Positions 1 through 46,864 are shown, counted from the stretch's first letter. The stretch: 57,580 nt of DNA from a virus (IMGVR_UViG_2529293084_000006), one strand, 5' to 3'. The notes: generated by a model not told the origin, from the letters alone. Program-made: numbers and translations.

Positions 1-289
1 GGTTTTCGAGAGCCGTTTGCACAGTGCCATCCGATTTGATATCGCCAAACGGATTCTTGCGGCTTAACAGCAGCGCGCGAAGTGCGGTAAGTAACTGGTC
101 GTGCCGCCCCTTCTCCAGGCTGGCACCGGATGCCTCCACCACGCTGCAAAGTTCCTCCTGCAACATGTCAAAGTAGTCATCATCCAGATCGGTGGCAGGC
201 GTGCCGGTCTGGGGGTTACCACGGGTAAAACCGTTCTTACCCGCGCCGAACTTATCCTTCTGCGCGGTTTTCGTGTCTATACGATGCAT
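1..289 (-). CDS. Tail fibre protein, N-terminal part (gene continues beyond the left edge of the window)
   Basis: Reverse-strand translation from ATG at 287..289 reads [43 protein letters not shown]..., a conserved N-terminus I recognise from enterobacterial prophage tail fibres; starts 4 bp after the upstream gene stop. Not in the ORF track because it is truncated. Confidence 0.65.
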
Positions 290-292
290 GGA

Positions 293-877
293 TTACTCCG
301 GATATTTAAAAATTACGTAGGTTTGCGACGGGCAGAGTTTGTTAAGCACACACTCGACAACGGTGTCACCCCAGATACGCAGTGCGGAATCACAGGGATC
401 GCCACATGTCATCCAGGTGGAGTTGGTGGTGGCTGGCATGTTGACCTGCCAGTAATACCGCCATTCCGGCGCATTCACCGCGTCAGTACAGGCCGATGAG
501 CAGGTGAAAGTGCTTTTGTCGTATCGCGTGATGGTGGCATCTGGTCTGCCCAGGGCAGCAAGCTGTGCAAGATAAAAATCCTCGTTGATGCCGCCCGCCA
601 GGTTAACCTTCGCATCCAGCCGTTGCTGACGCTGGCGAAGGGTCTGCGTTCCCGCCGGAATACATTCATCCGGCAGACCGCACAGACGCTCCCAGCGGTT
701 TATCAGTTCAGTGGTGGTGCGAGGATCCAGCTCCCGCATCAGGGCATCCGCACGCTGATGAACACGGGTTAATGACGGTGCCGCACCGGCAATCGCCGGA
801 TCGCTGGCTGACCACGCCGGACCGGGCGGCAACAGTGCCGATAACAGGCGGATGTAATCATCGTTTGTCACGTCCAT
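293..877 (-). CDS. Tail protein, homologous to the Mu-like element's gp48-type protein (45393..45953)
   Basis: 194-aa ORF; shares LLPxGxAW and DWERxxGLPEC motifs with the 186-aa protein at 45393..45953; sits between baseplate J and tail fibre. Confidence 0.6.
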
Positions 878-1926
878 GAAATCGTCCCCAGTACCGCCAG
901 TTCGTTTTTCGCAATGGAGATATTGTCCACCGGTGCAAGCAACTGATGGCTGTATTCCCCGTTCGCACCGGAAATCGCCTCACTGATACGCGATACCTTG
1001 AGTTCTCCCTGCGGATAACCATCACGCAGCAGGAACGAACGCAACTCCGCGGTAATGGCAGCCCGTATTTCCGGTGTGTCCGGCGTCACGCGGATATGAA
1101 AATCCACTTTATGCGCCACCGGCCTGAATACATACAAATCAGAGCCTGCCACCGGGGCCAGTGGCTCAATGTGTTGTCTTGCCGCCGTTTCCGTTGATTC
1201 TTCCGGAATGGGATTAATCAGGTCACTGCTGGCAATCATCACACCGACAGTTCCCGTTCCCATCCAGTGACGGTATGTCCATGCGCGGGTAATGCCGGGC
1301 ACTTCTTTAGCCCAGACAACATAGTCCCCGTCAGCCCCGCCCTGAGGCGTCCAGTAATACCGCTCAATGACGCGGGCGCGCCACGTTTCCAGATCTTCAG
1401 TATCGAATCCGCCAGTCAGGGTATCTGCAACACCGGAAGACGGCAGACCATTCACCGGCGTGACCAGGATTAATGCCGTACCGTCGTCAGCGTTACCGAC
1501 CGCGCCTGCACTTGAGCAGGCGATCGGCACGCGCAGGACACCACCGGAGCTGGTTGCATCAGCAGTTGCCGTGTACTGAACCAGGTCATCGCGCTGAATC
1601 ACGCTCCCGGCGGTCACCTTCAGGCCATCGCTGACACCTTCCCAGCGCATATACCCGCTGGCAGCCGTGGCCCCCTTGCGCGGACACCGTTTCATCGCAG
1701 CATGTCGCGCCAGCCAGGACTCATCGCACAGGTCAGGCAGCATGTTCATTGCCAGATAATCGATGTAACCGTAAACCGTATGCAGCGCCGCCGCATACAC
1801 CTTTGCCCGCACGTCTTCATCCATGCGCCGGAGCGTGTCGCTGACGTCCAGCCTGGCGAATAAATCGTTACGGAGCATACTGATATTTTCTGCCAGCGTC
1901 GGGCGCTGAAATTCACTGTCCGCCAT
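868..1926 (-). CDS. Baseplate J-like protein (Mu gp47-like)
   Basis: 352-aa ORF; position and size match the baseplate J gene at 44317..45402; shared motifs (PGVTRAW, VxFxIRxxPxTPE). Confidence 0.65.
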
Positions 1927-2341
1927 GCGTTATCGCACTCCACAGATCATCAAAAGAAATCATTACCGGTCCGTCACGACGCCAGAGGGTGATACTGTTA
2001 CCCAGCTCATTAATCCCGGTGCGGCGGATATCCAGATCAATACGGGACACCACGCCGTCATCAATCATCCATTGCAGGCATTCGCGGATATACCCCCTTA
2101 CTGTCTGCACCAGCTGATTGGTCAGTTTGCTGCGCTGAAGCAGCCACAGTCGTGAGCCGTAACGGTCATTCTGTACCGCAGGCCAGGTATCCCCCCACCA
2201 TCCCATCGGGACGTCGGCGTTGTCATCAGGCTCCGCCCGCCGCCAGGTAAACAGGGAAATCACCACGGCGCGGGTCAGCGGATCCAGCGGTGCGCTGGCG
2301 CAGGTGCGTTTACCGTTCACCGTCAGCCACAGTTCCATCAT
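1913..2341 (-). CDS. Baseplate protein, Mu gp46-like
   Basis: 142-aa ORF homologous to 43883..44320 (WWGD, SRLWLL motifs); conserved position in the baseplate cluster. Confidence 0.6.
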   Translation of the reverse strand: MMELWLTVNGKRTCASAPLDPLTRAVVISLFTWRRAEPDDNADVPMGWWGDTWPAVQNDRYGSRLWLLQRSKLTNQLVQTVRGYIRECLQWMIDDGVVSRIDLDIRRTGINELGNSITLWRRDGPVMISFDDLWSAITHGGQ

Positions 2342-2886
2342 GCCTCCATCGCTTTATCCGGTTTGTCGGTGTTACTGCCCTGACCGTTCTCTCTGTGACG
2401 ATGCCCGTTATAGGCAAGCCGCATCGCTGACATGGTAGTGCCGCTGGAGTCGCACAGGTCTTTCACCTGTCCTGTCACTTCCAGGTCCATTTCAAAACGT
2501 GCTTTAGGTGAATTGCGAAACGTGATCGTTTTACCTGCACCGTCCACCACGATCCCCTCCCGGGTCAGCGTCACAGACTGCCCCTGATCGTCATAGACAG
2601 CCACCTCACCCGTCTGCAACCCTTTCAGGCGGTAGCGCCGGTCCGACACCGTAACAACCACCGCATGAGAACGGTCGCCATCCGGAAACAACACCACCGC
2701 TTCCGCGCCGCTGTTTGCCCTTGCGGTAAAACCGTAGGGTTCAAGATGTTCAACCCCGGCTTTGGGTTCACCGGCAATCAGGGACACATCCACGGTCTGA
2801 CATTTCGTGGCGGCACTGATGCTTTTCACCACTGCCCGCGCAATCAGGCCGAGAAGTTGTCGCTGCATGGCTTCAATCGTCCTCAT
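2338..2886 (-). CDS. Baseplate assembly protein V-like (Mu gp45-like)
   Basis: 182-aa ORF; position matches 43276..43890; overlapping start/stop typical of a baseplate operon. Confidence 0.6.
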   Translation of the reverse strand: MRTIEAMQRQLLGLIARAVVKSISAATKCQTVDVSLIAGEPKAGVEHLEPYGFTARANSGAEAVVLFPDGDRSHAVVVTVSDRRYRLKGLQTGEVAVYDDQGQSVTLTREGIVVDGAGKTITFRNSPKARFEMDLEVTGQVKDLCDSSGTTMSAMRLAYNGHRHRENGQGSNTDKPDKAMEA

Positions 2887-3949
2887 CAGAACGGGTCCTC
2901 CTGTACTCTGGCTTTTTTCTTTTTCCGCGCGCCGGGGGCTTCGGGTTCAGGCAGATAAGCATCAGGCGGGCCGACACGGATTTCCGTCAGGGTGCCGTTC
3001 TGGTCCTGAGTAAACGTGACTTCCGAGACAAGCAGTTCGGTATTGTCGAAACCACAGACTGGATCGAAGACAATCACCCGCTGGTTGGGCTGCCACAGCG
3101 TACCGTTACCCTGTCGCCAGCCCTGCACCACATAGGTGGTTTCATCCGTCCGCGCCGCCCGTTGTCGGGCTTCAAAGTCAGCACGCGCAATACAGCCTGC
3201 CCCCGTGGCCTGCCCTGTCTGCCTGATATACATCGGACGGTAACGGGCAATAAATGCGTCCTCTGTGCGGGCCCGCAGCGCGGTGGTGGTGACCTCACCG
3301 AAATCATCGTCGTTTCCGGCACGCTGCCCCGCCACCTGGTAAACAGAAAACCGCTCCCGGATACTCTTCTCCGTATCACAGGAAAGGATGTTTTCCCCAA
3401 GTACCAGCGCGGTATGTGCCCGCGTTGAGCCAATACCGCCAATCACCAGCCTGCCGTGCGGATCGTCGTAAGCCAGCGCCTGCTGCTGACCGAGTATTTT
3501 GTTGATAACCTCAATCACCGTTTCACCGTGATCAGGCTGAACATCAGGAATAACACCCGACGGCGCACCGCTGTTCACCACCTCAATGCCGAAAGGCGCA
3601 GCAAGCGCCTGCGCAATCTGCACCAGCGAGCGTCCGTTAAACTGTGTCGGTTCGGCTGCACAGTCAATCAGGTCAGCCGTCAGACTACGTCCGGCAATAC
3701 CGGTGCTGACCGAACGGGAGTCGCCTCCACCCAGCCGGTGATCACCAGCTCATCACCAATCAGCACTTCCACTTTTGAACCGTTTTTAATGCGCGGCTGA
3801 AGCGTGGTGATACCCTCATCTCCCGGCCACTGGCGAGTGATCTCCACACTGAAATCCCGCGCCAGCCGTTCAATACCGGCACCGATGCGCACCGATGTCC
3901 AGCCATTCCACTCCCGGCCATTTACCCGTAGCGTGACATTGTCGTTCAT
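2886..3949 (-). pseudogene. Baseplate hub gene (Mu P/gp44-like) disrupted by a 1-bp frameshift near 3727
   Basis: Two ORFs (3680..3949, 89 aa; 2886..3623, 245 aa) together align to the intact 374-aa P-like protein at 42162..43286. Homology continues in a shifted frame right after ...VITGWV (GGDSRSVSTGIAGRSLTADLIDCAAEP...), consistent with loss of one G in a G-run. Confidence 0.55.
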
Positions 3950-5316
3950 TGCACTGGCACCTTCAGAGGGATCACCGGCACAAAGCCGGGATGCGTAATG
4001 GCATTACGCCGGATAATGTCCGCGTCACGCGCCGCGTTATCAAACCAGGTCGCCGCCAGCACCAGCGCGGGTAAAACCTCATCCGGCGTGCGCTGAATGA
4101 TCCGTGCAGACTGTTCAAGGCGCGTGTTGATATCCGCATTCAGATCTGCTTTCACCCGGCGCAGCGCCAGAAACAGCGCATCACTGGTTGTACGGGACAA
4201 CTCCTTATCAATTGCCGTATTCAGTGTGTCGCGAATGTCGGTCAGTTCTTCCCACGTTGGCAGGTCAACCGTGTTTTTCACCGCCGGTGCATTGTTCAGT
4301 GCCGGATGCGTGACAGAAGGCCAGCCGGTGCTCTGCGCGGGTGTTGTTGACTGCCCTACTGTGGCATTCTGCATCACCGCGGAAGTTGTGGGCGCAGGCA
4401 ATCGTGTGACGGCATACGCCGCTTCGCTGATTGCGGTCGTACGAAGGGTGCTGGCAACCACGTTACGCTGCTGCGTCGCCGTGGCGGTAGTTTTACTGTC
4501 CGTTTTCCAGACGCCGCGCGGTTGCAGATCGCTGCCGAGGCTGACACCGGAAAGCGTTTTGATCATGGTGACCAGGTCGCTGGCGTTACCATAAAGGCGT
4601 TTCCCGGTACGCCACATTTTCTGCACCTGCTCAACGAAATTTTTGCCTGACGATGGTGGCGGCAGAAGTACCGAGATATCCCCCTGCAACAGCCTGGCGG
4701 CATCCGATACGGCAGAATCCACCACTTTCATCGCATCAGAAACATACCCAAGCATTGTGCTGGCATTACCGACGACGTCGTTCTGCACAAAATCTGCCAC
4801 GCCATCGATACTGAAACCACTGAAGCTGTCACTGATGCAGTCATCCAGTGCAGAACAGGATGACATCAGCGTCTGCGCCGTCGCCGCACCTGAAGTGGGG
4901 TAAGAGAGTTCTCCCGCTTCGACAAACTTCAGGTCAAAGCGGACAATACGCCCTTCACTCTTCGATGTGCTGACCCGAACTTCCCCGTCAACACAGACTT
5001 TCAGCTCACCGTAAGTCGGATGGACAAGCGTGCCGGGACCGGGTTTATTCAGCGCGTCAATCAGGCGATCGCGCTGGTCAAAGCAGTCATCTCCCACCAC
5101 ATAAGCTGTGATGGACGGGCGGAAAGTGATTTTCCCCAGGTCTTCGGTATAGGGTTTGTCGCGGTTCGGGTATTCGTGCGTTTCCACACGACGACCGGTT
5201 CCCGCACTTTCTTCTTCAACCTTAAACGGCACACCGCGAAATGACGCGTCCTGAAGTCTGTCTTTCCACGTCATATAAACTCCGTACATAAAAAATCCCA
5301 CCGGAGTGGGACTCAT
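3946..5316 (-). CDS. DNA circularisation protein (Mu N-like)
   Basis: 456-aa ORF, same length as the N-like ORF at 40808..42178; shared motifs (FRGVPF, LxHPxYGxL); lies between tape measure and baseplate hub. Confidence 0.7.
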   Translation of the reverse strand: MSPTPVGFFMYGVYMTWKDRLQDASFRGVPFKVEEESAGTGRRVETHEYPNRDKPYTEDLGKITFRPSITAYVVGDDCFDQRDRLIDALNKPGPGTLVHPTYGELKVCVDGEVRVSTSKSEGRIVRFDLKFVEAGELSYPTSGAATAQTLMSSCSALDDCISDSFSGFSIDGVADFVQNDVVGNASTMLGYVSDAMKVVDSAVSDAARLLQGDISVLLPPPSSGKNFVEQVQKMWRTGKRLYGNASDLVTMIKTLSGVSLGSDLQPRGVWKTDSKTTATATQQRNVVASTLRTTAISEAAYAVTRLPAPTTSAVMQNATVGQSTTPAQSTGWPSVTHPALNNAPAVKNTVDLPTWEELTDIRDTLNTAIDKELSRTTSDALFLALRRVKADLNADINTRLEQSARIIQRTPDEVLPALVLAATWFDNAARDADIIRRNAITHPGFVPVIPLKVPVQ

Positions 5317-5334
5317 TAACAGATTAATTTTTCA

Positions 5335-7170
5335 TTACCTGCCAAAGCGCGTATAGCCAACATCATGGCTGACATCAAAACCGCTGGATCGCGTTTCCAT
5401 AACCCGCATACCCGGAGGCGAATTCACAAAAGAGACCTTGATCTCACCATCAACTTTTGGCGCAGAAGCTTTGTTAATCATGAAGGGATTCGGGCCTGTG
5501 GCACCGGAGGCGTTGTTTGACTGAGCCGGATCTACCGCCTGATAAGGTGTGTATCCCCGTGCCGGTATTCCCGTCCCATAAGCATCATAAGCACCCGCGC
5601 CCCACTGCGCAGAGTTAATGGCATCGACCGTGTCACCGGAACTGTCGGTAAACCACTCAATAATTGGCTTCAGTTTGTCCCACATATCCTGAAACCACTT
5701 AACAACCGGTCCCCAGTTATTGATTACCATCCCCAGCGGCGACCAGGCAAAAACCTTCTTCAGAAGTTCCCAGCCAGCCTCAAAATAAGGACCAATGGTT
5801 TCCCAGAGCTTCTTGAAATAAGGTCCGACAACATCCCAGTTAGTGATAATTAATCCCGCAGCCAGGGCTATCGCCGTCGCAATCATTCCAATCGGCGTCA
5901 TCGACATGATCCTGCTGACAATACTGATGGCACCGCCAACGCCCATCAATCCCAGTTTCAGAATCGCAAGACCGGCAGCAAGCCCGACGACGCCGCGAAT
6001 AACCCGGGGATTTTCATCCGCAAACTTCGTGAATTTTTCCCCTAACTCCCCCAGCCATTGCGTGATATTTTTGGCGTCACCAGAAAATGCGCCGCCAATA
6101 GCCGCAAGGCCGTTAGTTGCGGTCCCCGTCATTGCCTCCCACAGGTTGGACAGCGTACCAAGCTGGGCCTGAACACGTTTATTCAGGCTGGCCTGTTTAT
6201 TCATCTTCTGCTGGATCTGATCGTAGCCATCCTTTCCTTTATCGATTAGTGCATTGACCACCTGAAGGGTTTCGGCATCATCACCAAATATTGCCTTAAG
6301 TACACCTGTTCGCTTAACGTCGGTCAGTTTTCGCAGCTTTGCCAGTTGCCTGAACATGTTATCAAGACCGCCAAAACTTCCTTTGCCGTCAGTAAAATCG
6401 AGCTGTACCCCGAGTTTCTGGCGGGCCATGATTTTATTGACGTCCCTGATTTTCTTAACGCTTAATCCGGACTGGATAACTTTTCGCAGGGCGTTACCTG
6501 CCGACTCCCCGTTCATCCCCATCTGATCCATCATGACGCTGATGGGGGCAAGGCTCTGTGCAGCCTGAAGACCGTCCTTGTTCACCATCTTCAGAACAGA
6601 GCTGGTTTTAGTGAAGAAGGACAACATGTTGGTATCGTCAACACCCAGATAAAACGCCTTCTGGATAGTGTCGAACAGCCCCATCATGTCTTCTGACGCC
6701 GTTCCGGTAGCATCCTGCATCTTTGCAGCAAACTCAGCAGCCGCTTCCGGTGTTTTTTTCAGTTGTACCGCAAGATAAGCTGTCGCTTTACCCACACCGC
6801 CAAGAATGTTTTCTGCCGGGATCCCCTGACGCACCAGCATCTGCATCATGTTCTGGAAATCAGCCGTTGTACCGGGTAGCTGGTTACCCAGGCCAATAGC
6901 CAGTTTATTGATGTCCTGAAAGCTCTTTCCAACCTCGCCGTTCGCATCCATCATGGCGACTTTCAGCCCGGTGGCGGCGTTTTCCTGATCGGCATAAGAT
7001 TTCAGGGAAAGCGTCAGACCCGCTGCCAGTCCGCCACCAAGCGCCAGCCCACCCTGTGACGCTTCTTCCGCCTGGCGTTTAAATCCCCGGATTTTCTTTT
7101 GCATTTTCGACAGCGCGGGAGAAAGCCTGTCGACACCGGTGATCAACGCCTTAAGCTCAAATTCCGCCAT
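5335..7170 (-). CDS. Tail tape measure protein
   Basis: 611-aa protein with Ala/Gly-rich low-complexity stretches and a C-terminal hydrophobic segment; located downstream of the tail chaperone pair. Confidence 0.75.
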   Translation of the reverse strand: MAEFELKALITGVDRLSPALSKMQKKIRGFKRQAEEASQGGLALGGGLAAGLTLSLKSYADQENAATGLKVAMMDANGEVGKSFQDINKLAIGLGNQLPGTTADFQNMMQMLVRQGIPAENILGGVGKATAYLAVQLKKTPEAAAEFAAKMQDATGTASEDMMGLFDTIQKAFYLGVDDTNMLSFFTKTSSVLKMVNKDGLQAAQSLAPISVMMDQMGMNGESAGNALRKVIQSGLSVKKIRDVNKIMARQKLGVQLDFTDGKGSFGGLDNMFRQLAKLRKLTDVKRTGVLKAIFGDDAETLQVVNALIDKGKDGYDQIQQKMNKQASLNKRVQAQLGTLSNLWEAMTGTATNGLAAIGGAFSGDAKNITQWLGELGEKFTKFADENPRVIRGVVGLAAGLAILKLGLMGVGGAISIVSRIMSMTPIGMIATAIALAAGLIITNWDVVGPYFKKLWETIGPYFEAGWELLKKVFAWSPLGMVINNWGPVVKWFQDMWDKLKPIIEWFTDSSGDTVDAINSAQWGAGAYDAYGTGIPARGYTPYQAVDPAQSNNASGATGPNPFMINKASAPKVDGEIKVSFVNSPPGMRVMETRSSGFDVSHDVGYTRFGR

Positions 7171-7345
7171 GTGTGCGTTTCTCCTGCTCTATCCTGTTTG
7201 CCTGACTGACCAGCAAGGGAATTTCACTGATCGGCATATTCAGCAATTCGAAAGGATTAATGCGCCAGTAGCTGGCGCAGTCAAAGAAGCGATCAGTGAG
7301 GTATTCAGCCGTCAGGCCTGGAGGAAAAAACCAGCCACAAGCCAC
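7157..7345 (-). CDS. Tail assembly chaperone -1 frameshift extension
   Basis: 62-aa ORF in the -1 frame relative to 7312..7581, overlapping its 3' end; the classical G/GT arrangement. Confidence 0.5.
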   Translation of the reverse strand: MACGWFFPPGLTAEYLTDRFFDCASYWRINPFELLNMPISEIPLLVSQANRIEQEKRTHGGI

Positions 7346-7581
7346 GCCGCTGCATTCAGGTCTGCCGGAGACATCTGGTCGACAGAGCTTTGCGGCACTT
7401 TCGCCAGCCGCACAATGTATTTCGACACCACATGCGCCAGAAGTCTGACTGACTCATCCTGATTCATCTGGTAGGGATACCCCAGCTCGCGGACATCCTT
7501 CCCGGTGGGTTCATCAAACTCCAGTACGGAGAGTGTCTCGCCATGAGCAGTAATCGGTTTCTTTAACTCAAGCTCTTTCAT
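7312..7581 (-). CDS. Tail assembly chaperone (short form)
   Basis: 89-aa ORF between tail tube and tape measure; ends ...AAWLVAGFFLQA with a slippery heptamer in the overlap with the next ORF. Confidence 0.6.
   Translation of the reverse strand: MKELELKKPITAHGETLSVLEFDEPTGKDVRELGYPYQMNQDESVRLLAHVVSKYIVRLAKVPQSSVDQMSPADLNAAAWLVAGFFLQA
7324..7330 (-). other. Candidate -1 programmed frameshift slippery heptamer T_TTT_TTC
   Basis: Zero-frame codons GGT TTT TTC (..AGFF..) in the overlap; -1 slip gives ..FFPPGLTAEY.., the frame of the 62-aa ORF. Confidence 0.5.
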
Positions 7582-7937
7582 TACTGGTAATCCCCTTCTT
7601 CACCGTGGAACTCAAGATCAACCGTGCCTTCTTCGGCATTATGGTTCGCTTCGCCGTGCAGCCAGGCAGACGACAGTACATAGACCTGACCGTTCGCCAG
7701 CTCGGCAGTGATGGTCATCTCATCAGACGAGGTGATTTTGCTTACCGGAAAATTCTTCGGCACCTTGAAGGTCCCTTTGACATAAGGCGCACGGTGAGTT
7801 TCCTTGCGGTCCACTGAACCGTCCAGGCCGATGATGTCATCGTTAACCGTTTTGTTCATGGGCACCTCAATGCCGCCGGTCAGCGATAGCTGCTGACCGT
7901 CAATTTTGAAATAACAGGTTCCCCCGATACGGGCCAT
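7581..7937 (-). CDS. Tail tube protein
   Basis: 118-aa ORF immediately downstream of the sheath gene; size and position match the tube gene at 37784..38149. Confidence 0.7.
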   Translation of the reverse strand: MARIGGTCYFKIDGQQLSLTGGIEVPMNKTVNDDIIGLDGSVDRKETHRAPYVKGTFKVPKNFPVSKITSSDEMTITAELANGQVYVLSSAWLHGEANHNAEEGTVDLEFHGEEGDYQ

Positions 7938-9587: not shown

Positions 9588-9595
9588 GAGGATCC

Positions 9596-11409: not shown

Positions 11410-11442
11410 TACGCGGCGTGCTGTATTACGTAAAAAGACTAA

Positions 11443-12672: not shown

Positions 12673-12682
12673 GATGTTTCCT

Positions 12683-13815: not shown

Positions 13816-13878
13816 TTAAAGCGTTTAAAACTTCATTAAATCTATATGGCAACTAACATACGGGCCAGCCTCGCCAAA

Positions 13879-32523: not shown

Positions 32524-32546
32524 AATTCCCGGCTTATGCTGCCGGA

Positions 32547-34618: not shown

Positions 34619-34661
34619 ATGGTGAGCCGGGCTTACGGCCCGGCCCCTGCGGAGGGCAAAT

Positions 34662-37775: not shown

Positions 37776-37783
37776 GGTAAGGC

Positions 37784-38149: not shown

Positions 38150-38163
38150 TCAGGAAAAATAAA

Positions 38164-38640: not shown

Positions 38641-38766
38641 AGAAGCGGCAATTATCCTGGGGATGGTGACAAAAAGCGGTCCGGAATGGGCGCTTAACCT
38701 CCCCCTGTCGCAACTTTACCGGCACTGCCGACAGACAGAAAAAATCATCAGAACGAAGCAGTAAGT

Positions 38767-40842
38767 ATGGCCCGAAATCTCAGAGCATCTCTGATAGTTG
38801 ATTTGCTCGGCAATATCTCAGCCAAATCCCGCCAGTGGTCACAGGAGCTGGGGGCATTCTCACGCTCCGGCCAGGCGGGGCTGGGTGGCCTGGGAAATGC
38901 TGCCCGCCGTGCCGGGCAGGAAACAGATGTACTCGGAAGCAGGATGCAGCGCACGCTGGCCGGGGTGCGGGGCAGTATCCGCCATGTCACTTCTGATTTT
39001 GACCGTCTTCAGGGCAGTATTACCGGCACCATCGGGCGGATCAGCAATCTTTACGGAATGCTGGCCGGTGGTGCTGCTGTATATGGCTTTAACCGGGGAT
39101 TTATTCGCCCGGCAGCGGAGATGGAAACCTATATGATTCGCCTGAACTCCCTTTACAAAGGGGATCGGGCGAAAACTGATGATGTCCGCAGGTGGGCAAT
39201 ACAGAATGCGAAGGAAACCACCTGGGGGCTGGCTGGCGTCATGCAGGAATATACGTCCAGTCTGGGCTTTGGTATGAGTGACAGGGAGGCCCGAAATTTT
39301 GTCACCATGCTTCAGGATCAGGGTGCCGTGGGCGGCTGGTCACTGTCCGATGCACAGGGGGCATCCCTGCAACTGAAACAGATGTATGCAAGAGGCAGTA
39401 TTCAGGCAGCGGATGCAAATATTCTTGCCACCTACGGCATTAATGCCTACCGCGTGCTGGCTGATCGTCTGGGTGTGGACCAGAAAGTGGTCAGAAAACT
39501 TGGTGAAAAAGGGCTGCTTGGGCCGGACAGTATTCGCCTGTTATTTCAGACGCTGGCGGAACAGGCCAGGGGAGCACAAAAGGACGCAATGAATTCCTGG
39601 AGTGGCCTGACGGCCATGATGGGTGACGTCTGGGATCAGTTTGCCCGGGATGTGATGGACAGTGGGCCATTTGAAAAACTGAAGGGTAATCTCAGGGGAT
39701 TTCTTTCATGGGTTGACAGTGCCAAATCTGATGGCAGTTACCATTCCCTGGCGGAAAGTACGGCATCAGCCATGAACCAGGGCTTTGAGTATGCCCGTGA
39801 TGCAGTGACAGGGTTTTATCAGGCGATCAGAAAGGTACGCGACACGCTTCAGGCTCTGCGGGATGCGGGCTATGGTGATGCGCTGGATCGCATTGGTCAG
39901 GGGGCACAGACCGCCGCGAAATACCTGCTGTACATGTATCTCGCCACCCGTGCCCTGAAAATGGCGCGGGCTGTCGGAACGGGGATTATACGTCCGGGTG
40001 CTGCATTGCTGGGATACGGATTATCAGCGGCGGCCTTCCTTACCTCACCTTTCCGGCGCTCTCCTCCGGCCGGAACACCACCAGGCACATCTCAGGGACG
40101 AGGGCAACGTTTTATAAACTTTCTTACCGGGGTAAATCCGGCAGCCGTTCAGCCAGTACTTGTAACAAACTGGCCCACAGGAGGACTGTCCGGCACCGGC
40201 GCGACCGATACATCCTCAGGCGGACGTCAGGGGCGGGGCCGCAGGAAACGCGGACCGGGGCGCGGAAGACCGGTCACGCCTCCCCTGCCACCGTCCCCAG
40301 TGCCACCGTCTCCCTCTTCTGGTGGGGCAGGGTTCTGGGGGCGCATGATGGGGCGCGCCGGTGGGTTACTTTCGTCTGTCGGTAGCCGCATGGGGCTGGG
40401 GCGTTTCTCCGGCTTTTTCCGCAGTGCCGGTGGACTGGCCGGCCGGCTGGGTGGAGGTGCCCTGTGGGCTGGCGCGATGGCAGCCCCGGTTCTGCTGGAT
40501 GGCAGCGCCAGTGCCACAGACAAGGGAGAAGCGGTCGGCTCTCTTGCAGGCAGTATTGCCGGTGGTGCGCTGGGGGCGGCAGCCGGACCTGTGGGGATTG
40601 CCATTGGTTCTACGGTGGGCAGCTATCTCGGTAACTATCTGGGGGGATGGCTGACTGAAGCCTGGCAGAAATTACGGGGCAGTGATGATGAAAGCAGTGG
40701 ACAGGCGGTACAAAAAGCCTCTGCCCGTGTGGAGCTGGTTGCCCCGGAAGGGTGGCAGGCTCGCAGTATTGATATTGATGACACGTCCGGTCACGGACTG
40801 GATGTGAATGTCTGGAACGGAGGGAATTATGGCCTCTGGTGA
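38767..40842 (+). CDS. Tail tape measure protein
   Basis: 691 aa; Gly/Ala/Pro-rich low-complexity C-terminal half. Confidence 0.8.
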   Translation: MARNLRASLIVDLLGNISAKSRQWSQELGAFSRSGQAGLGGLGNAARRAGQETDVLGSRMQRTLAGVRGSIRHVTSDFDRLQGSITGTIGRISNLYGMLAGGAAVYGFNRGFIRPAAEMETYMIRLNSLYKGDRAKTDDVRRWAIQNAKETTWGLAGVMQEYTSSLGFGMSDREARNFVTMLQDQGAVGGWSLSDAQGASLQLKQMYARGSIQAADANILATYGINAYRVLADRLGVDQKVVRKLGEKGLLGPDSIRLLFQTLAEQARGAQKDAMNSWSGLTAMMGDVWDQFARDVMDSGPFEKLKGNLRGFLSWVDSAKSDGSYHSLAESTASAMNQGFEYARDAVTGFYQAIRKVRDTLQALRDAGYGDALDRIGQGAQTAAKYLLYMYLATRALKMARAVGTGIIRPGAALLGYGLSAAAFLTSPFRRSPPAGTPPGTSQGRGQRFINFLTGVNPAAVQPVLVTNWPTGGLSGTGATDTSSGGRQGRGRRKRGPGRGRPVTPPLPPSPVPPSPSSGGAGFWGRMMGRAGGLLSSVGSRMGLGRFSGFFRSAGGLAGRLGGGALWAGAMAAPVLLDGSASATDKGEAVGSLAGSIAGGALGAAAGPVGIAIGSTVGSYLGNYLGGWLTEAWQKLRGSDDESSGQAVQKASARVELVAPEGWQARSIDIDDTSGHGLDVNVWNGGNYGLW

Positions 40843-42178
40843 CGGTCGTGGTGCGTTCCGTGGTGTGCCGTTCCTCGTCTGGCGTGAGCAGCGCGAACGT
40901 GGTGGGCGAAACATTGTCCGTCGGGAATATCCGTTACGGGAAACCGGTGGGGCAGACGATCTGGGACCTAAACTGACTGAATTTACGTTCAGTGTACTTG
41001 TGATGGGGGATGATGTTCAGACACAGCGAAATCGTCTGCGTGATGCCCTTCGTGCTCCCGGTGCCGGGGAGCTGCTTCACCCGGATTACGGCACGTTAAA
41101 TGTGCTGATAAACAGCTTTGAAAGTCGTTATAACGCCGCTGAACAGGGCGTGGTTGAGTTCACCATTAATGTCACGCCGGTAAGTGATGATACCGCACCT
41201 GCTGTCACACAGGACACGGCCGCCATTCTGGAGCAGAAGAGTACCACCGCGCTCGGGCAGGTTTTTGAAACCCTGGAAGCGGGCTGGACGGTGATCTCTG
41301 ACGGAATGCACGATGTCCAGGCAATGACCGAAACCATCAGTGATAAGGTGTCCGCCCTGGAAAATGCCGTTTCCGGCATGGGGATTGTACAGGATATCAG
41401 TGCCTTTACTGCCACGTTCACGGCGCTGAAAGGGAATGCCACGGCATTACTGACAGCACCTTCCCGCATGGCCTCATCTTTTGCGGGGCTTTTCAGTGCC
41501 CTGATCACCCTGCCATCGCTGCCGTCACTGTCTTCAGGAGGCCTGAATACCCGGCCCGGTGGCAGTATCGGCCGGACGACATCCGCCGTCTCTCAGGGAA
41601 TGCCGCAACTGTACAGGACATTATCTTCCCTGCGTTACGTGCTGGATGAGCAGGATAATCCGCAGACTCTCATCGGTCTGACACCGGCAGCACAAAAGAA
41701 TATTCGTCTGATACGGGCGGTAATGCAGAGTGCTGCCGTGGTGGCCCAGGCACAGACCGTGGGAAAACTGCTGGATCAGGTTCTCAGTCAGGAAACCCTG
41801 CCGGACAGTGACGCAGCCCACCGTACCTGGCCTGTCTGGCTGGAAAGTTCAGTTGATCTTCAGCGCATTAACCGTGACTTAAGCGAAGCGCTCGAACGGC
41901 AGGTGATGACACTGTCCGGGCAGGGGTATACCGCCACGGCGCTGACGCTTCGTGATGCCAGACTGGCACTGACAGAGGATCTGAATACACGGGGAGTTCA
42001 GCTACCCGGTGCAACAGTAGTGACTGTACGTACCACCGAGCCTGCACTGGTGACCCTGTACCGTGCCACCGGGAACAGTACCGGCTGGCAACGTTTTGTG
42101 CGCCGTAACGGTATTGTTGATCCGCTGTTCATTCCCGGAGGCCATTCAGTGGAGGTGATTAGTGAGCAGCAGGGTTGA
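40808..42178 (+). CDS. DNA circularisation protein (Mu N-like)
   Basis: 456 aa; homologous to 3946..5316; start may be the internal ATG at 40829. Confidence 0.7.
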   Translation: MSGTEGIMASGDGRGAFRGVPFLVWREQRERGGRNIVRREYPLRETGGADDLGPKLTEFTFSVLVMGDDVQTQRNRLRDALRAPGAGELLHPDYGTLNVLINSFESRYNAAEQGVVEFTINVTPVSDDTAPAVTQDTAAILEQKSTTALGQVFETLEAGWTVISDGMHDVQAMTETISDKVSALENAVSGMGIVQDISAFTATFTALKGNATALLTAPSRMASSFAGLFSALITLPSLPSLSSGGLNTRPGGSIGRTTSAVSQGMPQLYRTLSSLRYVLDEQDNPQTLIGLTPAAQKNIRLIRAVMQSAAVVAQAQTVGKLLDQVLSQETLPDSDAAHRTWPVWLESSVDLQRINRDLSEALERQVMTLSGQGYTATALTLRDARLALTEDLNTRGVQLPGATVVTVRTTEPALVTLYRATGNSTGWQRFVRRNGIVDPLFIPGGHSVEVISEQQG

Positions 42179-43286
42179 ACTGTATCTGGGCGGTGAGATT
42201 TTTTCCGGCTGGCTGACGGTGAGTGTTCGTCGCTCTCTTGAACATCTGGCGGGCTCCTTTGAACTGGGGGTAATGATGCCCGGTGTACGCCTTCCGTCAT
42301 CCGTCCGTGCCGGTCAGTCTCTGGAATTGCGCATTGACGGTCAGCCTGTGATCACTGGCTGGCTGGATCAGGTCCGGCAGCGCATCAGCGCCACGCGTTT
42401 TCAGATCACGCTCAGCGGACGGGATAAAACCGGTGACCTGGTGGACTGTTCAGCCATTCATCCGGGCAGCCAGTGGAGGAACCGCACGCTGGAGCACATT
42501 GCTTCAGATTTGTGTGCTCCGTTCGGGGTCACGGTGCGCTGGCAGGTAAATGATGCAACGGCAGCCCGGCCCTTTTCCACCTTCACACTGGAAAATTCAG
42601 AAACCGTGGCAGATGCGCTGACACGGGCCGCGAGACACAGAGGCGTCCTGGTAACCAGTAATGCCGCCGGTGAACTGGTTTTCACTCAGGCCGGCAGTCA
42701 GCGTGGCGACACGCTGACGCTGGGCGAAAATCTGCTGGATTTGGATCACAACGTGGATCACCGTCTGCGCCACAGTGAATACCGTGTACGGGGGCACGGG
42801 CGTGGTGGTGGTCATGCCGGGGATGCACTGACAGCCGGAACGCTGGCCGCACCAGTTGGTACGGTGACAGACAGTGCCATCCACCGTTACAGACCGAAAA
42901 TTGTGCTGGCGGATCATGCTGTTGATGCAGACGGTGCACGCCAGAGGGCTGTCCGGGAAATGCGCCGGGCGGTTGCCCGCTCTGTGCGCCTGACAGCCAC
43001 CGTGCGGCACTGGTTTCGGGAGAACGGCCAGTTGTGGGATATCAACCTGCTGACGGCTGTCACGGCTCCCCGCACCGGAGTGGAAGAGCGTGATCTTCTT
43101 GTCTGTCAGGTGGAGTTTTCGCTGGATGCAAATCACGGCGAAACCACCCGTCTGATTCTGGCACCCCGTGACGGCTTTATTGTTCCGGCAGAGCCGGGAA
43201 ACAGCGGAAGCGGAAATGCGGGTGACGTGGACGCCTTCGTGCGGGCACAGATGAAAAAACAGGGGATTAAATTCAATGATGAATGA
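42162..43286 (+). CDS. Baseplate hub protein (Mu P/gp44-like)
   Basis: 374 aa; intact homolog of the frameshifted gene at 2886..3949. Confidence 0.7.
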   Translation: MSSRVELYLGGEIFSGWLTVSVRRSLEHLAGSFELGVMMPGVRLPSSVRAGQSLELRIDGQPVITGWLDQVRQRISATRFQITLSGRDKTGDLVDCSAIHPGSQWRNRTLEHIASDLCAPFGVTVRWQVNDATAARPFSTFTLENSETVADALTRAARHRGVLVTSNAAGELVFTQAGSQRGDTLTLGENLLDLDHNVDHRLRHSEYRVRGHGRGGGHAGDALTAGTLAAPVGTVTDSAIHRYRPKIVLADHAVDADGARQRAVREMRRAVARSVRLTATVRHWFRENGQLWDINLLTAVTAPRTGVEERDLLVCQVEFSLDANHGETTRLILAPRDGFIVPAEPGNSGSGNAGDVDAFVRAQMKKQGIKFNDE

Positions 43287-43890
43287 CGAAGTCATCAGCC
43301 GCCTTCTGGCCCCCGTGATGCGGGGTGTTCGTCTGCTGTTCGGGCGTGGTGTACTGACCGGCACAACGGACACGCTGAAAATCCAGAATGTGCAAATCAC
43401 CGGTATGGATGGTGAAACCTTTGATGACGTTGAACGCCCCCAGCAGTACGGGCAAATCAGCGTCCCCCTGCCTGGTGCGGAAGTTTTTCTGGCCTGTGCT
43501 GGCGGACAACGGGATCAGGCCGTGGTGCTTGTGGTGGAAGACCGCCGCAGTCGCCCGACCGGACTTACCGCCGGAGATACCGGCGTGTATCACCATGAGG
43601 GGCACCGTATACGTCTGACAAAGAACGGCCGGATCATTGTGACCTGTAAGACACTGGAGATTTACGCCGATGAAGGTGTTCAGGTGGATACACCGGAGGC
43701 TCACTTTACCGGTAATATCACAGTGGATAAGAACCTGCATGTCAAAGGCAATGTGTCCATTGACGGCACCGGAAGATCACAGGGGGCGTTCACGATGTCC
43801 GAAGCGGTTATTGCCGGGATCACCTATTCAGGTCATGTGCATCACGATAACGGTGAAGGCAGCAAAACGGGAGGACCAGAGAATGGCTGA
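43276..43890 (+). CDS. Baseplate assembly protein V-like (Mu gp45-like)
   Basis: 204 aa; homolog of 2338..2886. Confidence 0.65.
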   Translation: MMNDEVISRLLAPVMRGVRLLFGRGVLTGTTDTLKIQNVQITGMDGETFDDVERPQQYGQISVPLPGAEVFLACAGGQRDQAVVLVVEDRRSRPTGLTAGDTGVYHHEGHRIRLTKNGRIIVTCKTLEIYADEGVQVDTPEAHFTGNITVDKNLHVKGNVSIDGTGRSQGAFTMSEAVIAGITYSGHVHHDNGEGSKTGGPENG

Positions 43891-44320
43891 TATTGCTGTC
43901 GTCTGGGATCAGGGTTGTGGTTCCCTGCAACTGAACGGCGCAGATCTTCTGACGGATAACAGCCTGCTGACTGCGGTCATTATTTCACTGTTTACGGACA
44001 GGCGGGCGCTGGATTCCGATGAAATCCCTGACGGCACCCGTGACCGTCGGGGATGGTGGGGAGACAGTTTCCGGGAGCGCCCCATTGGCTCCCGTCTCTG
44101 GCTGTTAAGCCGTGAAAAGACGCTGTCCTCCGTGGTCAGCCGTGCACAGGCCTATGCTGATGAAGCGCTGGCGTGGCTGCATAAAAGCGGTGCTGCCACA
44201 TCCGTGGTATGTCATGCCATGCGTGTGGGGCATGATCGCCTTTCGCTTTCCGTGAAAATCACCCTGCCGGACGGAAGCAGACATCCGATGATTTTTTATG
44301 CTGATATGAAGGGGGAATGA
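43883..44320 (+). CDS. Baseplate protein, Mu gp46-like
   Basis: Track ORF 43670..44320 trimmed to ATG 43883 (MADIAVVWDQ..., GGGAGG RBS); homolog of 1913..2341. Confidence 0.6.
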   Translation: MADIAVVWDQGCGSLQLNGADLLTDNSLLTAVIISLFTDRRALDSDEIPDGTRDRRGWWGDSFRERPIGSRLWLLSREKTLSSVVSRAQAYADEALAWLHKSGAATSVVCHAMRVGHDRLSLSVKITLPDGSRHPMIFYADMKGE

Positions 44321-45402
44321 TGCCTTATCAGCCCTTACCACTGGCGCAACTGATCACACAGACACAACAGGATATCAGCCAGCGCCTGCCCGGTTCGCAG
44401 CCGGGCGTGAATGAAACCACCCTGAATGCCATTGCGTATGCACTGGCGGGTCTGTCAGCACAGGAGCATGAACATCTGGCCTGGATCTCCCGGCAGATAA
44501 TTCCGACAGAAGCTGATGAAGCCGAACTCCTGAAACACTGCGCATTCTGGGGTGTCATCCGTAAACCGGCTTCCCGCGCTGACGGACCGGTACAACTGAT
44601 GCTGACCACGGATGCAGGGATCACGGAAGGCGTACTCCTTCAGCGAAGCGATGGTGTTGTGTACCGCATCACCGGCTCTGCGACCGGAAAAGCCGGAACA
44701 CTGAATGTTAATGTGGAGGCGGAAAGTGCGGGGCGCGCCGGAAATACCCCGACCGGAACCCGCCTGTCCTTTATCACGCCACAGGCGGGCATCAACCAGA
44801 CAGCCACGGTTACCGGCACGGGACTCACCGGTGGTGCGGATGTGGAAACGGTGCCGGAGTTGCTGTCCAGGCTGGTATTCCGGGTACAGAACCCGCCATC
44901 AGGGGGAACACAGTATGATTTTGAACGCTGGGCACGGGAAGTACCGGGCGTGACGCGGGCATGGTGTAAGCCTGAATGGCCTGAGGCGGGTAGTGTTGGT
45001 GTGACTTTTGTTCAGGATAATAACCCTGACATTTTCCCCGGAGAAGGTGATGTGAAGCGGGTGGCGGATTATATCCGCAGTCATGATGATCCGGCGACGG
45101 GCCAGCCCGTTGGTCAGCCACTTGGGCCGACAATCAGCGTGTTTAAGCTGACCAATAAGCCGGTGGCGTTTGAGATCAGGATTGTACCCAAAACGCCGGA
45201 AAATCAGGCTGCCGTAAAACAGGCATTAACGGACCTGCTTTATAACGAATCGCGGCCGGGTGGACTTGTATTGCCTTCATCATTCTGGCGGGCTGTTGCA
45301 GGGGTGAAAGGACTGGAGGATTTTGAAGTTCGCAGTCCGCTGAAGTCCGTGATGGCCGGAGATACAGAGTTGCTGACCGTGGGGGAAATCACATGGCTGT
45401 AA
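44317..45402 (+). CDS. Baseplate J-like protein (Mu gp47-like)
   Basis: 361 aa; homolog of 868..1926. Confidence 0.7.
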   Translation: MMPYQPLPLAQLITQTQQDISQRLPGSQPGVNETTLNAIAYALAGLSAQEHEHLAWISRQIIPTEADEAELLKHCAFWGVIRKPASRADGPVQLMLTTDAGITEGVLLQRSDGVVYRITGSATGKAGTLNVNVEAESAGRAGNTPTGTRLSFITPQAGINQTATVTGTGLTGGADVETVPELLSRLVFRVQNPPSGGTQYDFERWAREVPGVTRAWCKPEWPEAGSVGVTFVQDNNPDIFPGEGDVKRVADYIRSHDDPATGQPVGQPLGPTISVFKLTNKPVAFEIRIVPKTPENQAAVKQALTDLLYNESRPGGLVLPSSFWRAVAGVKGLEDFEVRSPLKSVMAGDTELLTVGEITWL

Positions 45403-45953
45403 CCCTGACCCCGCATCAGCGCGCCCTGTTGCAGTTGCTGCCTGACGGGCTGGCATGGGATAAGCGGCCGTCATCCGTTCTTGCGGCTTTGTGCCTGGGC
45501 CTCAGTCATTCCACGGAGCGTGTTTCCTGGACCGGTAACCAGATGCTGGCAGAACGTTTTCCTGATTCATCCCGTCTGCTGCTGGAAGACTGGGAGCGTT
45601 ATCTGGGGTTACCGGAATGTGATATGACCGGCGCAACCATTCAGGAACGTCAGCGTTATGCAGGGAATAAATACCGGATGAAACCCTCTCTTAACCGTGA
45701 ATTTTATATCCGGTTTGCGGCAGAGTTTGGTTATGAAATAGATATTCAGCCATCACCGGATTCACAGTGGGTCAGTATTGTCACGATAAACAGTGAAACC
45801 GGCTACCGGAATATGAATGTGCTGGATGATATTCTCACCCCGCTGCGTATTTATGAGGGTGGTGCGCTGGAATGTATTCTGAACCGTTATAAGCCTGCAT
45901 GGCAGACGTTTATTTACGTGTATGCAAACAGTCACAAAGAGGAGAATATTTAA
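45393..45953 (+). CDS. Tail protein, Mu gp48-like
   Basis: 186 aa; homolog of 293..877. Confidence 0.6.
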   Translation: MAVTLTPHQRALLQLLPDGLAWDKRPSSVLAALCLGLSHSTERVSWTGNQMLAERFPDSSRLLLEDWERYLGLPECDMTGATIQERQRYAGNKYRMKPSLNREFYIRFAAEFGYEIDIQPSPDSQWVSIVTINSETGYRNMNVLDDILTPLRIYEGGALECILNRYKPAWQTFIYVYANSHKEENI

Positions 45954-46864
45954 TGTTCCATGTTGATAATAATTCCGGCGTGGCGAATATGCCTGAACTG
46001 GCTCCGGCGCAGAGTAATACCACCACCTGGTTTACCGAAGGTGACGGACAAAAAGGTATCAGCTGGATTGGTCAGGACTGGCTGAATATTCTCCAGGCCG
46101 AACTGCTGAATATTCTGGCTGAAGCCAGTATTCAGCCGGATAAGGCGCAGTTAAACCAGCTTACGCTGTCCATTAAAGCCATTATCGCTGCGAATGCCTT
46201 TTCCCGGAAAAACAACCTGAAAGAAATTGCTGATGCCGGTGCGGAAGCCCAGCGTCTGGCCCGTGGTTATCTTGGTCTGGGGACGCTTGCCACAAAAAAC
46301 AGTCTTGGTCCCGCTGACGTTAATGCCCTGGCGAAGGATCAGAACCTTGCCGACCTGGAGAATGCGGAAACCGCCCGTAATAATCTGGATGTTTACAGCA
46401 GGAGCGAAGGTGATAACCGTTACCTGCGCAGGGACCAGAATGGCGCGGATATCCAGGACAAAGGAACCTTTATCGATAACCTCGGTTTACGGGAAACGGT
46501 AAATAAGGCTGCTGATGCCCTGCCATCGGCTGGAACCGCCGTGGCAGCAAACAGACTCGCCACCCCAAGAAATATTAATGGTGTTCCTTTTGACGGAACG
46601 CTGGATATCAACATCACGTCAGGAATGACGCAGTCAACCGCAGATGGCCGGTATGTACAGAATGTTCAGCTTGGAGCACAGAGCTATCATTCACCCGGAG
46701 GCAATGAAATGTCATGGAATTACAGCGCACCTTCCGGTTGTATGCTTTCCGGTATTAACGTGCAGGAAACCGGCTCCCGGTCTGCGGACAATATCGGTGG
46801 GGTCTATTATCGCCCGGTTCAGATTTATATTAATAATACCTGGAGAACGGTAAGTTCAGTGTAA
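45953..46864 (+). CDS. Tail fibre protein (constant N-terminal part plus variable C-terminus in the current orientation)
   Basis: Track ORF 45899..46864 trimmed to ATG 45953 (AAGAGGAG RBS); the coding sequence crosses the left gix site at 46470. Confidence 0.7.
   Translation: MFHVDNNSGVANMPELAPAQSNTTTWFTEGDGQKGISWIGQDWLNILQAELLNILAEASIQPDKAQLNQLTLSIKAIIAANAFSRKNNLKEIADAGAEAQRLARGYLGLGTLATKNSLGPADVNALAKDQNLADLENAETARNNLDVYSRSEGDNRYLRRDQNGADIQDKGTFIDNLGLRETVNKAADALPSAGTAVAANRLATPRNINGVPFDGTLDINITSGMTQSTADGRYVQNVQLGAQSYHSPGGNEMSWNYSAPSGCMLSGINVQETGSRSADNIGGVYYRPVQIYINNTWRTVSSV
46470..46495 (+). promoter_or_regulatory. Left gix-like recombination site TTATCGATAACCTCGGTTTACGGGAA
   Basis: About 22/26 identity to the Mu gix sequence as I recall it; central TC dinucleotide. 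Confidence 0.65.

Follow-up and report, generated by a model that had tools for sequence, protein, structure and literature searches.

The closest described relatives of the outer prophage considered here are Shigella flexneri phage SfV (NC_003444 / U82619) and its relatives SfI, SfII, SfIV and Escherichia phage SKA5. SfV is said to have a Mu-like tail (PMC4542187, quoting Allison 2002/2003) and to combine it with HK97-family head proteins (PMC4542187, PMC3851460). The closest described relative of the inner element is Sp18 of E. coli O157:H7 Sakai (NC_002695.2, 5040971..5079729), a Mu-like prophage predicted to be intact, with a published invertible host-specificity region (PMC2669165). Sp18-like phages occupy strain-specific sites (PMC7430833), and in one study six out of ten had another mobile element, such as an Stx phage, as their insertion site (PMC10132054). 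Mu-like phages nested in Stx and other prophages have already been seen in STEC (the CC119 study, PMC10132054; LC727895, LC727881), the copies being 89–96% identical in nucleotide sequence to our inner element, and in strain 10153 such a copy lies in a lambdoid portal gene. However, the prophages that host them in STEC are lambdoid and have non-contractile tails, and hence two Mu-type tail modules are not brought together there.

The window, that is, the whole 57,580-nucleotide stretch analysed (IMGVR_UViG_2529293084_000006), almost certainly represents, as judged from sequence comparison, two known temperate phages, one nested in the other, in a chromosome of the E. coli O157:H7 type: an Sp18-like Mu-like phage occupies the portal gene of an SfV-like prophage. 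The compared sequences themselves show how similar each part is to its relatives, where the junctions lie, the duplication and the empty site, and also that the tail modules lack nucleotide homology to each other; none of the sequence evidence contradicts the nested-phage explanation. The arrangement is ordinary; both the HK97-head/Mu-tail mosaic of SfV and Sp18-like insertions into prophages have been published.

The outer SfV-like prophage

The outer prophage comprises two arms:
1..13628, minus strand: left arm (tail fibre gene start, tail module, head-tail joining genes, HK97-type capsid and protease, C-terminal portal fragment)
13278..13628, minus strand: C-terminal portal fragment (SfV orf3 nucleotides 925..1275; Phage_portal profile positions 246–321)
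52925..56243, minus strand: right arm (97.4% nucleotide identity to SfV 1..3319; Pfam matches)
52925..53804, minus strand: N-terminal portal fragment, whose ORF runs 5 nucleotides into the right end of the Mu-like element, to 52920
53952..55685, minus strand: large terminase, right arm
55682..56185, minus strand: small terminase, P27-type, right arm

The left arm is 97.5% identical to SfV 3313..16959, and the two arms follow SfV orf1–orf21 gene for gene at 96–99% nucleotide identity (98–99% for orf1–orf5). The head genes match the Pfam families Phage_portal (PF04860), Peptidase_S78 (protease, PF04586), Phage_capsid (PF05065) and PF05119 (small terminase). Given this HK97-family head set and the high nucleotide identity across the structural region, the prophage is of the SfV type. 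The first-pass annotation, which likened the outer phage to some Shigella and E. coli phages with a mosaic of an HK97-type head and a Mu-type tail, was right on this point. Unlike SfV, the portal gene is split by the 39.3-kb insertion, and the baseplate hub gene (orf16) carries a frameshifting deletion of 16 bp. The end that in SfV encodes the integrase and O-antigen modification, next to the tail fibre region, falls to the left of the window.

An even closer match is the prophage at the Sp1 locus (about 300–335 kb) of E. coli O157:H7 FRIK2455 (NZ_CP015843.2). It is identical outside the insertion, including the frameshifted hub, save for one mismatch in the 13,628 nucleotides of the left arm (99.993%); the flank containing the right arm has no mismatches in 4,656 nucleotides (100%). 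Further left, past the point that matches the edge of the window, FRIK2455 carries not gtr but pinE, in an invertible fibre segment.

The inner Sp18-like element

The main features of the inner element and its borders are as follows (a dot stands for features with no strand given):
13625..13628 (.): target-site duplication AGAA, left copy, 4 bp, insertion junction
13629..52924, plus strand: Sp18-like transposable Mu-like prophage, 39,296 bp, with ends 5'-TGTAACCAGG...CGCGCTATA-3', placed by comparing six independent insertions
13882..17944 (.): immunity and transposition region, 99–100% amino acid identity to Sakai Sp18 proteins
13882..14409, minus strand: repressor, left end
14600..14848, plus strand: Ner-like gene, left end
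14850..16940, plus strand: MuA-like transposase (related copies annotated 'Mu transposase C-terminal domain-containing protein')
17012..17944, plus strand: MuB-like ATPase (related copies annotated 'AAA family ATPase')
45953..48536 (.): G-segment-like invertible host-range region (fibre, assembly, inverted repeats, invertase)
45953..46864, plus strand: tail fibre gene
46478..46660 and 47730..47913 (.): inverted repeats of the fibre region, 76% identity
46899..47471, minus strand: inverted tail-fibre-assembly gene (Caudo_TAP Pfam match)
47976..48536, plus strand: Gin-like DNA invertase (Resolvase/HTH_7 Pfam matches)
51905..52796, plus strand: com-mom genes for DNA modification, right end (Mom PF25680, E 2.6e-77; Sakai homologues 99–100% identical)
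52925..52928 (.): target-site duplication AGAA, right copy, 4 bp, insertion junction

The nucleotide identity to Sakai Sp18 is 96.4–98.2% along the whole length, and the two elements share the gene order, the ends, the Gin-like invertible fibre region, a DUF6645/SASA cargo gene and com-mom. The element belongs to the Sp18-like class: at its left end a MuA-like DDE transposase and a MuB-like ATPase adjoin the repressor and ner, and insertions occur at unrelated sites, with conserved termini and a short duplication of the target, in addition to the whole-element identity. It differs from Sakai Sp18 in the insertion site (sorM in Sakai) and in an early segment of about 0.7 kb that has been replaced (22080..22748); one small early ORF is exchanged for two others. 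All other ORFs are intact except one conserved hypothetical gene (51327..51790), which looks frameshifted relative to Sakai. The sheath is 89% identical to that of Sakai overall but differs at amino acids ~100–250. This patch is not a copy of the outer sheath, to which its identity is 24–37%. PADLOC found no defence family among the cargo ORFs, and the scans of the whole window with Rfam and ARAGORN yielded no RNA family and no tRNA, respectively.

The element is not a member of Muvirus, defined by a 5-bp duplication with 5'-TG...CA-3' termini and by nucleotide similarity to Mu, D108 or SfMu. Its right terminus is TA (...TATA-3') rather than CA, it duplicates 4 bp of its target instead of 5 bp, its transposase is only 26% identical to that of Mu (NC_000929), and the nucleotide matches to Mu, D108 and SfMu are short patches (635 nucleotides at 72%, 78 nucleotides at 88%).

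Two homologous tail modules

The genes of module A were identified by Pfam and SfV matches, the hub being further delineated by alignment with SfV orf16, and those of module B by Pfam:
293..9587, minus strand: tail module A, SfV type (Pfam; gene by gene SfV orf10–orf20, 96–99.6% nucleotide identity)
293..877, minus strand: gp48-like
868..1926, minus strand: gp47/Baseplate_J
1913..2338, minus strand: gp46
2338..2886, minus strand: gp45
2886..3949, minus strand: baseplate hub pseudogene (SfV orf16 / Mu P homologue)
3946..5289, minus strand: N/DNA_circ
5335..7170, minus strand: tape measure
7312..7581, minus strand: chaperone
7581..7937, minus strand: tube
7937..9433, minus strand: sheath
9417..9587, minus strand: DUF2635 (gp38-like)
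36034..45953, plus strand: tail module B, Sp18/Mu type (Pfam; 100.0% nucleotide identity to E. coli strain 88_1577)
36034..36279, plus strand: DUF2635
36276..37775, plus strand: sheath
37784..38149, plus strand: tube
38164..38640, plus strand: gp41 chaperone
38767..40842, plus strand: tape measure
40829..42178, plus strand: N
42162..43286, plus strand: hub P
43276..43890, plus strand: gp45
43883..44320, plus strand: gp46
44317..45402, plus strand: gp47
45393..45953, plus strand: gp48

The coordinates and the opposite strands bear out the initial observation of two Mu-type contractile tail modules in inverted orientation within one locus, one in the outer prophage and one in the inner element. 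Both modules retain the Mu gp38–gp48 synteny, with the sheath (Phage_sheath_1 and 1C) followed by the tube (PF10618), a gp41-type chaperone, N, the four-domain hub P/gp44, the gp45 spike, gp46, Baseplate_J gp47 and gp48, and share the Pfam order DUF2635, Phage_sheath_1/1C, Tail_tube PF10618, Phage_TAC_7, DNA_circ_N, GpP domains, Phage_Mu_Gp45, GP46, Baseplate_J, Phage_Mu_Gp48. BLASTP between the two ORF sets yields eight colinear pairs: gp48-like (26.9% amino acid identity, E 6.5e-15), gp47/Baseplate_J (27.9%, 1.5e-41), gp46 (34.4%, 2.9e-15), gp45 (29.1%, 3.6e-21), two fragments of the hub P (32.1%, 2.7e-24; 29.3%, 3.7e-6), N/DNA circularisation (28.1%, 2.8e-26) and sheath (34.5%, 5.3e-82). 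Overall, the identity is 27–36% for the sheath, N, hub and gp45–gp48, and the correspondence of the modules is far beyond chance.

The claim that the tail genes are homologous stands for the sheath, N, hub and gp45–gp48. The tubes, like the chaperones, have no significant pairwise similarity and are linked only via shared Pfam families; the claim is not supported for the tape measures, which have no significant pairwise similarity and belong to different Pfam families (PF10145 and PF20155). Nor are the sheath C-termini, given as an example of divergence, well chosen: the C-terminal half is the best conserved part (44–54%), and the least conserved one is at amino acids ~100–300.

Module B is closer to Mu, with 37–54% amino acid identity and high z-scores for all twelve genes (gp37–gp48). 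Module A has the same gene order as Mu and 30–41% identity for the sheath, N, P, gp45–48 and gp38; eight of the twelve genes are significant, and pairwise comparison gives no significant similarity for the tube (a weak match, z 6.5), the chaperone, the tape measure and the terminator.

Nesting, and proposed recombination or cross-talk

The insertion breaks the Phage_portal profile precisely at position 246, and the two halves of the portal gene abut exactly. In FRIK2455, unlike in the window, this gene is uninterrupted and provides the empty site ATTGG-AGAA-GGTGG. Six independent Sp18-like insertions (in the SfV-like portal, sorM, mhpD, a DUF2534 gene, a sulfatase gene and IS66) all have TG...TA ends and a 4-bp duplication; a Mu-type duplication of 5 bp was ruled out for every alternative placement of the ends in the six insertions. 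Our literature search for the length of the Sp18 target duplication found no statement of it. An assembly artefact, in which the contig would misjoin a Mu-like prophage to an SfV-like one located elsewhere in the genome, could be suspected as the exact junction, on either side, is covered by no record among 5,426 complete RefSeq E. coli genomes, and as the stretch probably stems from a draft assembly. However, the two junctions share one point of the portal gene, with exact abutment of its halves and the 4-bp duplication typical of the family. Moreover, when the truncated portal ORFs were looked up by exact match, identical junctions came to light in independent draft and SRA assemblies, at least two from NCBI (GCA_000316405.2, GCA_000267505.2) and at least three from independent sequencing runs (SRR3223800, SRR396620, SRR504722), which makes a misjoin extremely improbable. 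The nested insertion is rare and restricted to one clade, with draft assemblies as its only occurrences so far.

Under the nested-phage explanation, the starting point was an SfV-like prophage with its old, well-described mosaic of an HK97-type head module and a Mu-type contractile tail module. An Sp18-like phage entered its portal gene by transposition, whether replicative or conservative, and came to point against the late operon; modules A and B, of common but ancient ancestry, now face each other across about 27 kb. The modules are inverted simply because the transposable phage happened to insert that way round. They are independent gene sets, B serving the apparently intact inner phage, which is probably still active, and A belonging to the outer prophage, which, with its split portal and frameshifted hub, is doubly defective and presumably unable to form virions.

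The first-pass annotation further took the inverted modules for a substrate of recombination and module exchange. Recombination between them would turn round the ~27 kb that separates them or swap tail genes, producing hybrid phages. It is true that the modules are homologous and colinear at the protein level, and that recombination between prophages has been documented for the near-identical lambdoid prophages of O157 (PMC2669165). However, the codon-aligned nucleotide identity is 44.4% over 7,392 nucleotides, with third positions near 30% and saturated synonymous sites. Megablast and dc-megablast between the modules gave no hit, and the best blastn match (word size 7) was 84 nucleotides at 69%. 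The longest shared word (15 nucleotides) is non-colinear and equals that in shuffled controls. Shen and Huang reportedly found in 1986 that RecA-dependent exchange in E. coli needs roughly 23–27 bp of perfect identity. The longest colinear identical run here is 12 nucleotides, so the modules have neither the ~25 or more identical nucleotides of the RecA MEPS nor a high overall identity. Since the gene order and folds are common but usable nucleotide identity is absent, the modules cannot act as inverted repeats for homologous recombination. The per-gene identities all fall in one band (27–36%), and hence no gene seems to have been recently exchanged. No A/B hybrids were seen in the 5,426 complete E. 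coli genomes, the partial copies of module A, such as those of the e14 and Sp1 types, being deletion remnants. For the Sp18-type module, 186 records with at least 95% identity appear to rank above a match with coverage × identity of 0.87 and, since they apparently do so, should be essentially full length. With both the nucleotide identity too low and hybrids unseen in relatives, the very outcome that the first-pass annotation named as refuting its suggestion, exchange between the modules is extremely improbable, and the suggestion has to be abandoned. As the modules are structurally homologous, cross-talk of their proteins may also be considered, in which inner-module proteins such as the hub would complement or poison the assembly of the hub-less outer tail. 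The hub of module A has lost 16 bp between short direct repeats at about 3719/3720, leaving two ORFs (3680..3949 and 2886..3623), and is annotated 'frameshifted' in FRIK2455 as well; all other module A tail genes in the window, from gp48-like to sheath, are intact (this tally excludes the tail fibre gene, cut by the window edge), and module B has an intact hub of the same four-domain architecture. On the other hand, cross-assembly is unexpected at ~32% identity of the hubs and 27–35% of their baseplate partners, the two phages have separate late regulation, and no infectious particle could arise from an outer prophage whose portal is missing too. We consider such complementation or poisoning very unlikely; there is a slightly better, still slim, chance that the inner hub might affect the outer tail in either way and that the defective SfV-like prophage could yield tailocin-like particles upon induction of the Mu-like phage.

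Except for bookkeeping, the nested locus itself has little importance. It illustrates cleanly how a transposable phage can inactivate another prophage, and that a tail architecture common to co-resident phages does not imply recombination potential. Annotation pipelines should treat the 57-kb "prophage region" as two entries, one for the Sp18-like phage, apparently intact, and one for the SfV-like prophage with its two defects. The 4-bp stagger of the Sp18 family, as opposed to the 5 bp of Mu, together with the low transposase identity to MuA, is better supported than the cross-talk of the tails; the 4-bp duplication and the TA-3' right end, differing from those of textbook Mu, are the only slightly unexpected by-product.

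Structure and origin of the nested locus

The locus is an ordinary nested prophage composed of two already known phage types; all that sets it apart is the Mu-type tail of the host prophage itself. The ORF listing and composition place minus-strand genes at 1..13.6 kb and from 52.9 kb onwards, with a long run of plus-strand genes in between, from 14.6 to about 52.8 kb. In megablast searches against phage records, the left arm (window 1..13631) is 97.5% identical to positions 3313..16959 of Shigella phage SfV, and the right arm (52925..56243) is 97.4% identical to SfV 1..3319; hence the arms form a single SfV-like prophage, broken within orf3, the portal gene. The mosaic of an HK97-type head and a Mu-type tail, proposed in the first-pass annotation, is confirmed, and the HK97-family head proteins of SfV have been described (PMC3851460).

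Over its whole length, the interrupting DNA (13629..52924, 39,296 bp) aligns at 96.4–98.2% identity with Sp18, the Mu-like phage of E. coli O157:H7 Sakai (PMC2669165). In the O157:H7 strain FRIK2455, this SfV-like prophage is present with its portal gene unbroken. The left arm differs from it by one mismatch in 13,628 nt, the right arm by none in 4,656 nt, and the two alignments share a 4-nt overlap, AGAA. The SfV sequence at the insertion point is ATTGGAGAAGGTGGC, and the portal Pfam profile breaks precisely at position 246. An Sp18-like transposable phage has inserted in the portal gene of the SfV-like prophage.

Features of the outer prophage
52920..53804, profile match, portal Pfam profile positions 2–246
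13278..13628, profile match, portal Pfam profile positions 246–321
2886..3949, minus strand, hub gene (orf16 homologue), frameshifted, 16 bp lost between two short direct CCCGTTCG repeats, deletion point about 3719/3720
56302..56751, minus strand, HNH endonuclease, beside the small terminase
57130..57471, plus strand, Bor/Iss serum-survival lipoprotein gene

Truncated portal ORFs occur only at nested junctions, and were used as markers of the insertion in assemblies. They are found with identical surrounding DNA in GCA_000316405.2, GCA_000267505.2 and the assemblies of SRA runs SRR3223800, SRR396620 and SRR504722; therefore, the join is real and inherited in a small clade. The nested junction is absent from every complete RefSeq E. 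coli genome searched.

Compared with SfV, all structural genes of the outer prophage within the window are open, except the portal gene, split by the inner phage insertion, and the hub gene. Since the FRIK2455 hub gene has the same lesion, the latter is older than the Mu-like insertion, meaning that the outer prophage was defective even before its portal was disrupted. In FRIK2455, this prophage also bears a Pin-type invertible fibre segment of its own, just past the position of the window's left edge.

Comparison of the two tail modules

Tail modules
293..9587, minus strand, module A, SfV-type tail genes of the outer prophage
36034..45953, plus strand, module B, Sp18/Mu-type tail genes of the inner phage

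The proposed presence of two inverted Mu-type tail modules is borne out: lying on opposite strands, they agree in gene order and in Pfam families (DUF2635, sheath, tube, chaperone, tape measure, N, hub P, gp45, gp46, Baseplate_J, gp48). In BLASTP comparisons, the A and B proteins are 27–35% identical (E from 4e-6 to 5e-82) for gp48, gp47, gp46, gp45, hub, N and sheath. In a three-way comparison with Mu, each of the twelve module B genes is 37–54% identical to its Mu counterpart, and module A is about equally far (30–41%) from B and Mu in sheath, N, P, gp45–48 and gp38. The tube, chaperone, tape measure and terminator of module A show no significant pairwise similarity to module B or Mu; PF10618 is common to both tubes and PF10109 to both chaperones, and the tape measures belong to different families, PF10145 (A) and PF20155 (B). 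The sheath C-termini had been cited as an example of divergence, but the opposite is seen: the C-terminal half is best conserved (44–54%) and residues about 100–300 least (24–37%).

The suggestion that the inverted modules are a substrate for recombination and module exchange is refuted by the low nucleotide identity and the lack of hybrids among the complete E. coli genomes scanned. Neither megablast nor dc-megablast yields a match between the modules, or between any parts of the outer and inner prophages, and the best blastn match, located in the sheath genes, covers 84 nt at 69%. The codon-aligned identity is 44.4% over 7,392 nt, and about 30% at third positions, that is, at saturation. Colinear identical runs reach at most 12 nt; the longest word shared in any arrangement, 15 nt, is non-colinear (hub gene versus tape-measure gene) and matches the level of shuffled-sequence controls, which share words of 12–15 nt. 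RecA-dependent exchange is said to require roughly 23–27 identical bp, a figure ascribed to Shen and Huang in 1986; the identical runs are shorter, hence the modules are not a recombination substrate. Moreover, all A/B gene pairs lie within one identity band, and therefore there has been no recent exchange.

Among 5,426 complete E. coli genomes, no A/B hybrid tail modules were seen. The Sp18-type module is present in 231 of them (at least 80% covered in 221), and the 186 records with at least 95% identity all appear ranked above a match with coverage × identity of 0.87, so that they should be essentially full length. The SfV-type module is present in 1,460, its partial copies being decay remnants, e.g. 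K-12 e14 and the Sp1-type remnant.

Ends, targets and gene content of the inner phage

Features of the inner phage
13625..13632 and 52921..52928, duplication and terminus regions
14850..16940, plus strand, transposase, 26% identical to MuA of Mu
22080..22748, plus strand, early-region segment with no similarity to Sakai Sp18, which has a 61-aa ORF there instead
22071..22382 and 22355..22747, plus strand, two ORFs of this segment
about 36576..37025, plus strand, sheath patch (aa about 100–250), 52–80% identical to Sakai Sp18, against 100% elsewhere in the sheath
46478..46660 and 47730..47913, inverted repeats, 183 bp, 76% identical, bracketing the tail-fibre C-terminus and the inverted fibre-assembly gene
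48636..50675, plus strand, 679-aa cargo protein between the invertase and com-mom, with a SASA (sialate O-acetylesterase-like) domain and C-terminal DUF6645
51327..51790, minus strand, conserved hypothetical gene in the right-end region, aligned as two pieces to the Sakai homologue

Identical termini, 5'-TGTAACCAGG...CGCGCTATA-3', and 4-bp duplications (TAAA, AGAA, AGAA, TATA, TCCG) are shared by five further independent Sp18-like insertions, located in sorM, mhpD, an IS66 element and genes for a DUF2534 protein and a sulfatase. Over all six insertions (the window and loci L002, L005, L006, L008 and L009), the duplications are AGAA in three cases, TAAA, TATA and TCCG, the recurrence of AGAA hinting at a bias towards A-rich targets. 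Thus Sp18-like elements have a 4-bp duplication and 5'-TG...TA-3' ends, whereas Mu has a 5-bp duplication and CA-3' ends; no mention of these features of Sp18-like elements was found in the literature. Identity of the transposase to that of Mu is only 26%; the figures are 49% for MuB, 37–68% for head and tail proteins, 75% for Gin and 79% for Mom. Probable transposase-binding sites are TTTGATAC[CT] repeats, three at either end, lying at about +18, +113 and +165 as counted from the left end and about +18, +40 and +75 as counted from the right one.

Nesting of Sp18-like phages in other prophages is already published: in CC119 STEC, 6 of 10 lie within mobile elements, several of which are Stx phages (PMC10132054). 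In the GenBank records LC727895 and LC727881, the annotation reads "region of the inserted Bacteriophage Mu-like phage", and E. coli strain 10153 has an Sp18-like copy in a lambdoid portal gene. Judging by the flanking features of hit lists, such elements are often situated within other prophages' genes (lambdoid portal, minor tail protein L, lysis gene, integrase, tail terminator), matching the published proportion.

Compared with Sakai Sp18, the transposition, lysis, head and tail genes are all intact, which is consistent with the published view of Sp18 as an intact Mu-like phage (PMC2669165) and of Sp18-like phages as moving among strains and sites (PMC7430833). The sharp sheath difference, confined to one internal stretch, sets apart Sp18-like phages that are otherwise 99–100% identical, and resembles an allelic patch within the least conserved domain, which is probably exposed at the surface. 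Its derivation from an SfV-type sheath is ruled out, as it is only 24–37% identical to that of module A. The inverted repeats and the adjoining Gin-like invertase make up a G-segment-like switch.

The two early-region ORFs have no Pfam or PADLOC match. The cargo protein, kept in all Sp18-like copies examined, has no PADLOC match. In related Sp18-like prophages, RefSeq places a minus-strand 'tRNA-OTHER' between the gp30-like and G-like head genes (L005, 17792..17879; L006, 17783..17863); ARAGORN and Rfam yield nothing at the corresponding place of the window, about 31775..31897. Finally, the gene at 51327..51790 is apparently frameshifted, judging by its two-piece alignment, and its counterpart is labelled 'frameshifted' by RefSeq in strains ECP19-798 and AUSMDU00014361.
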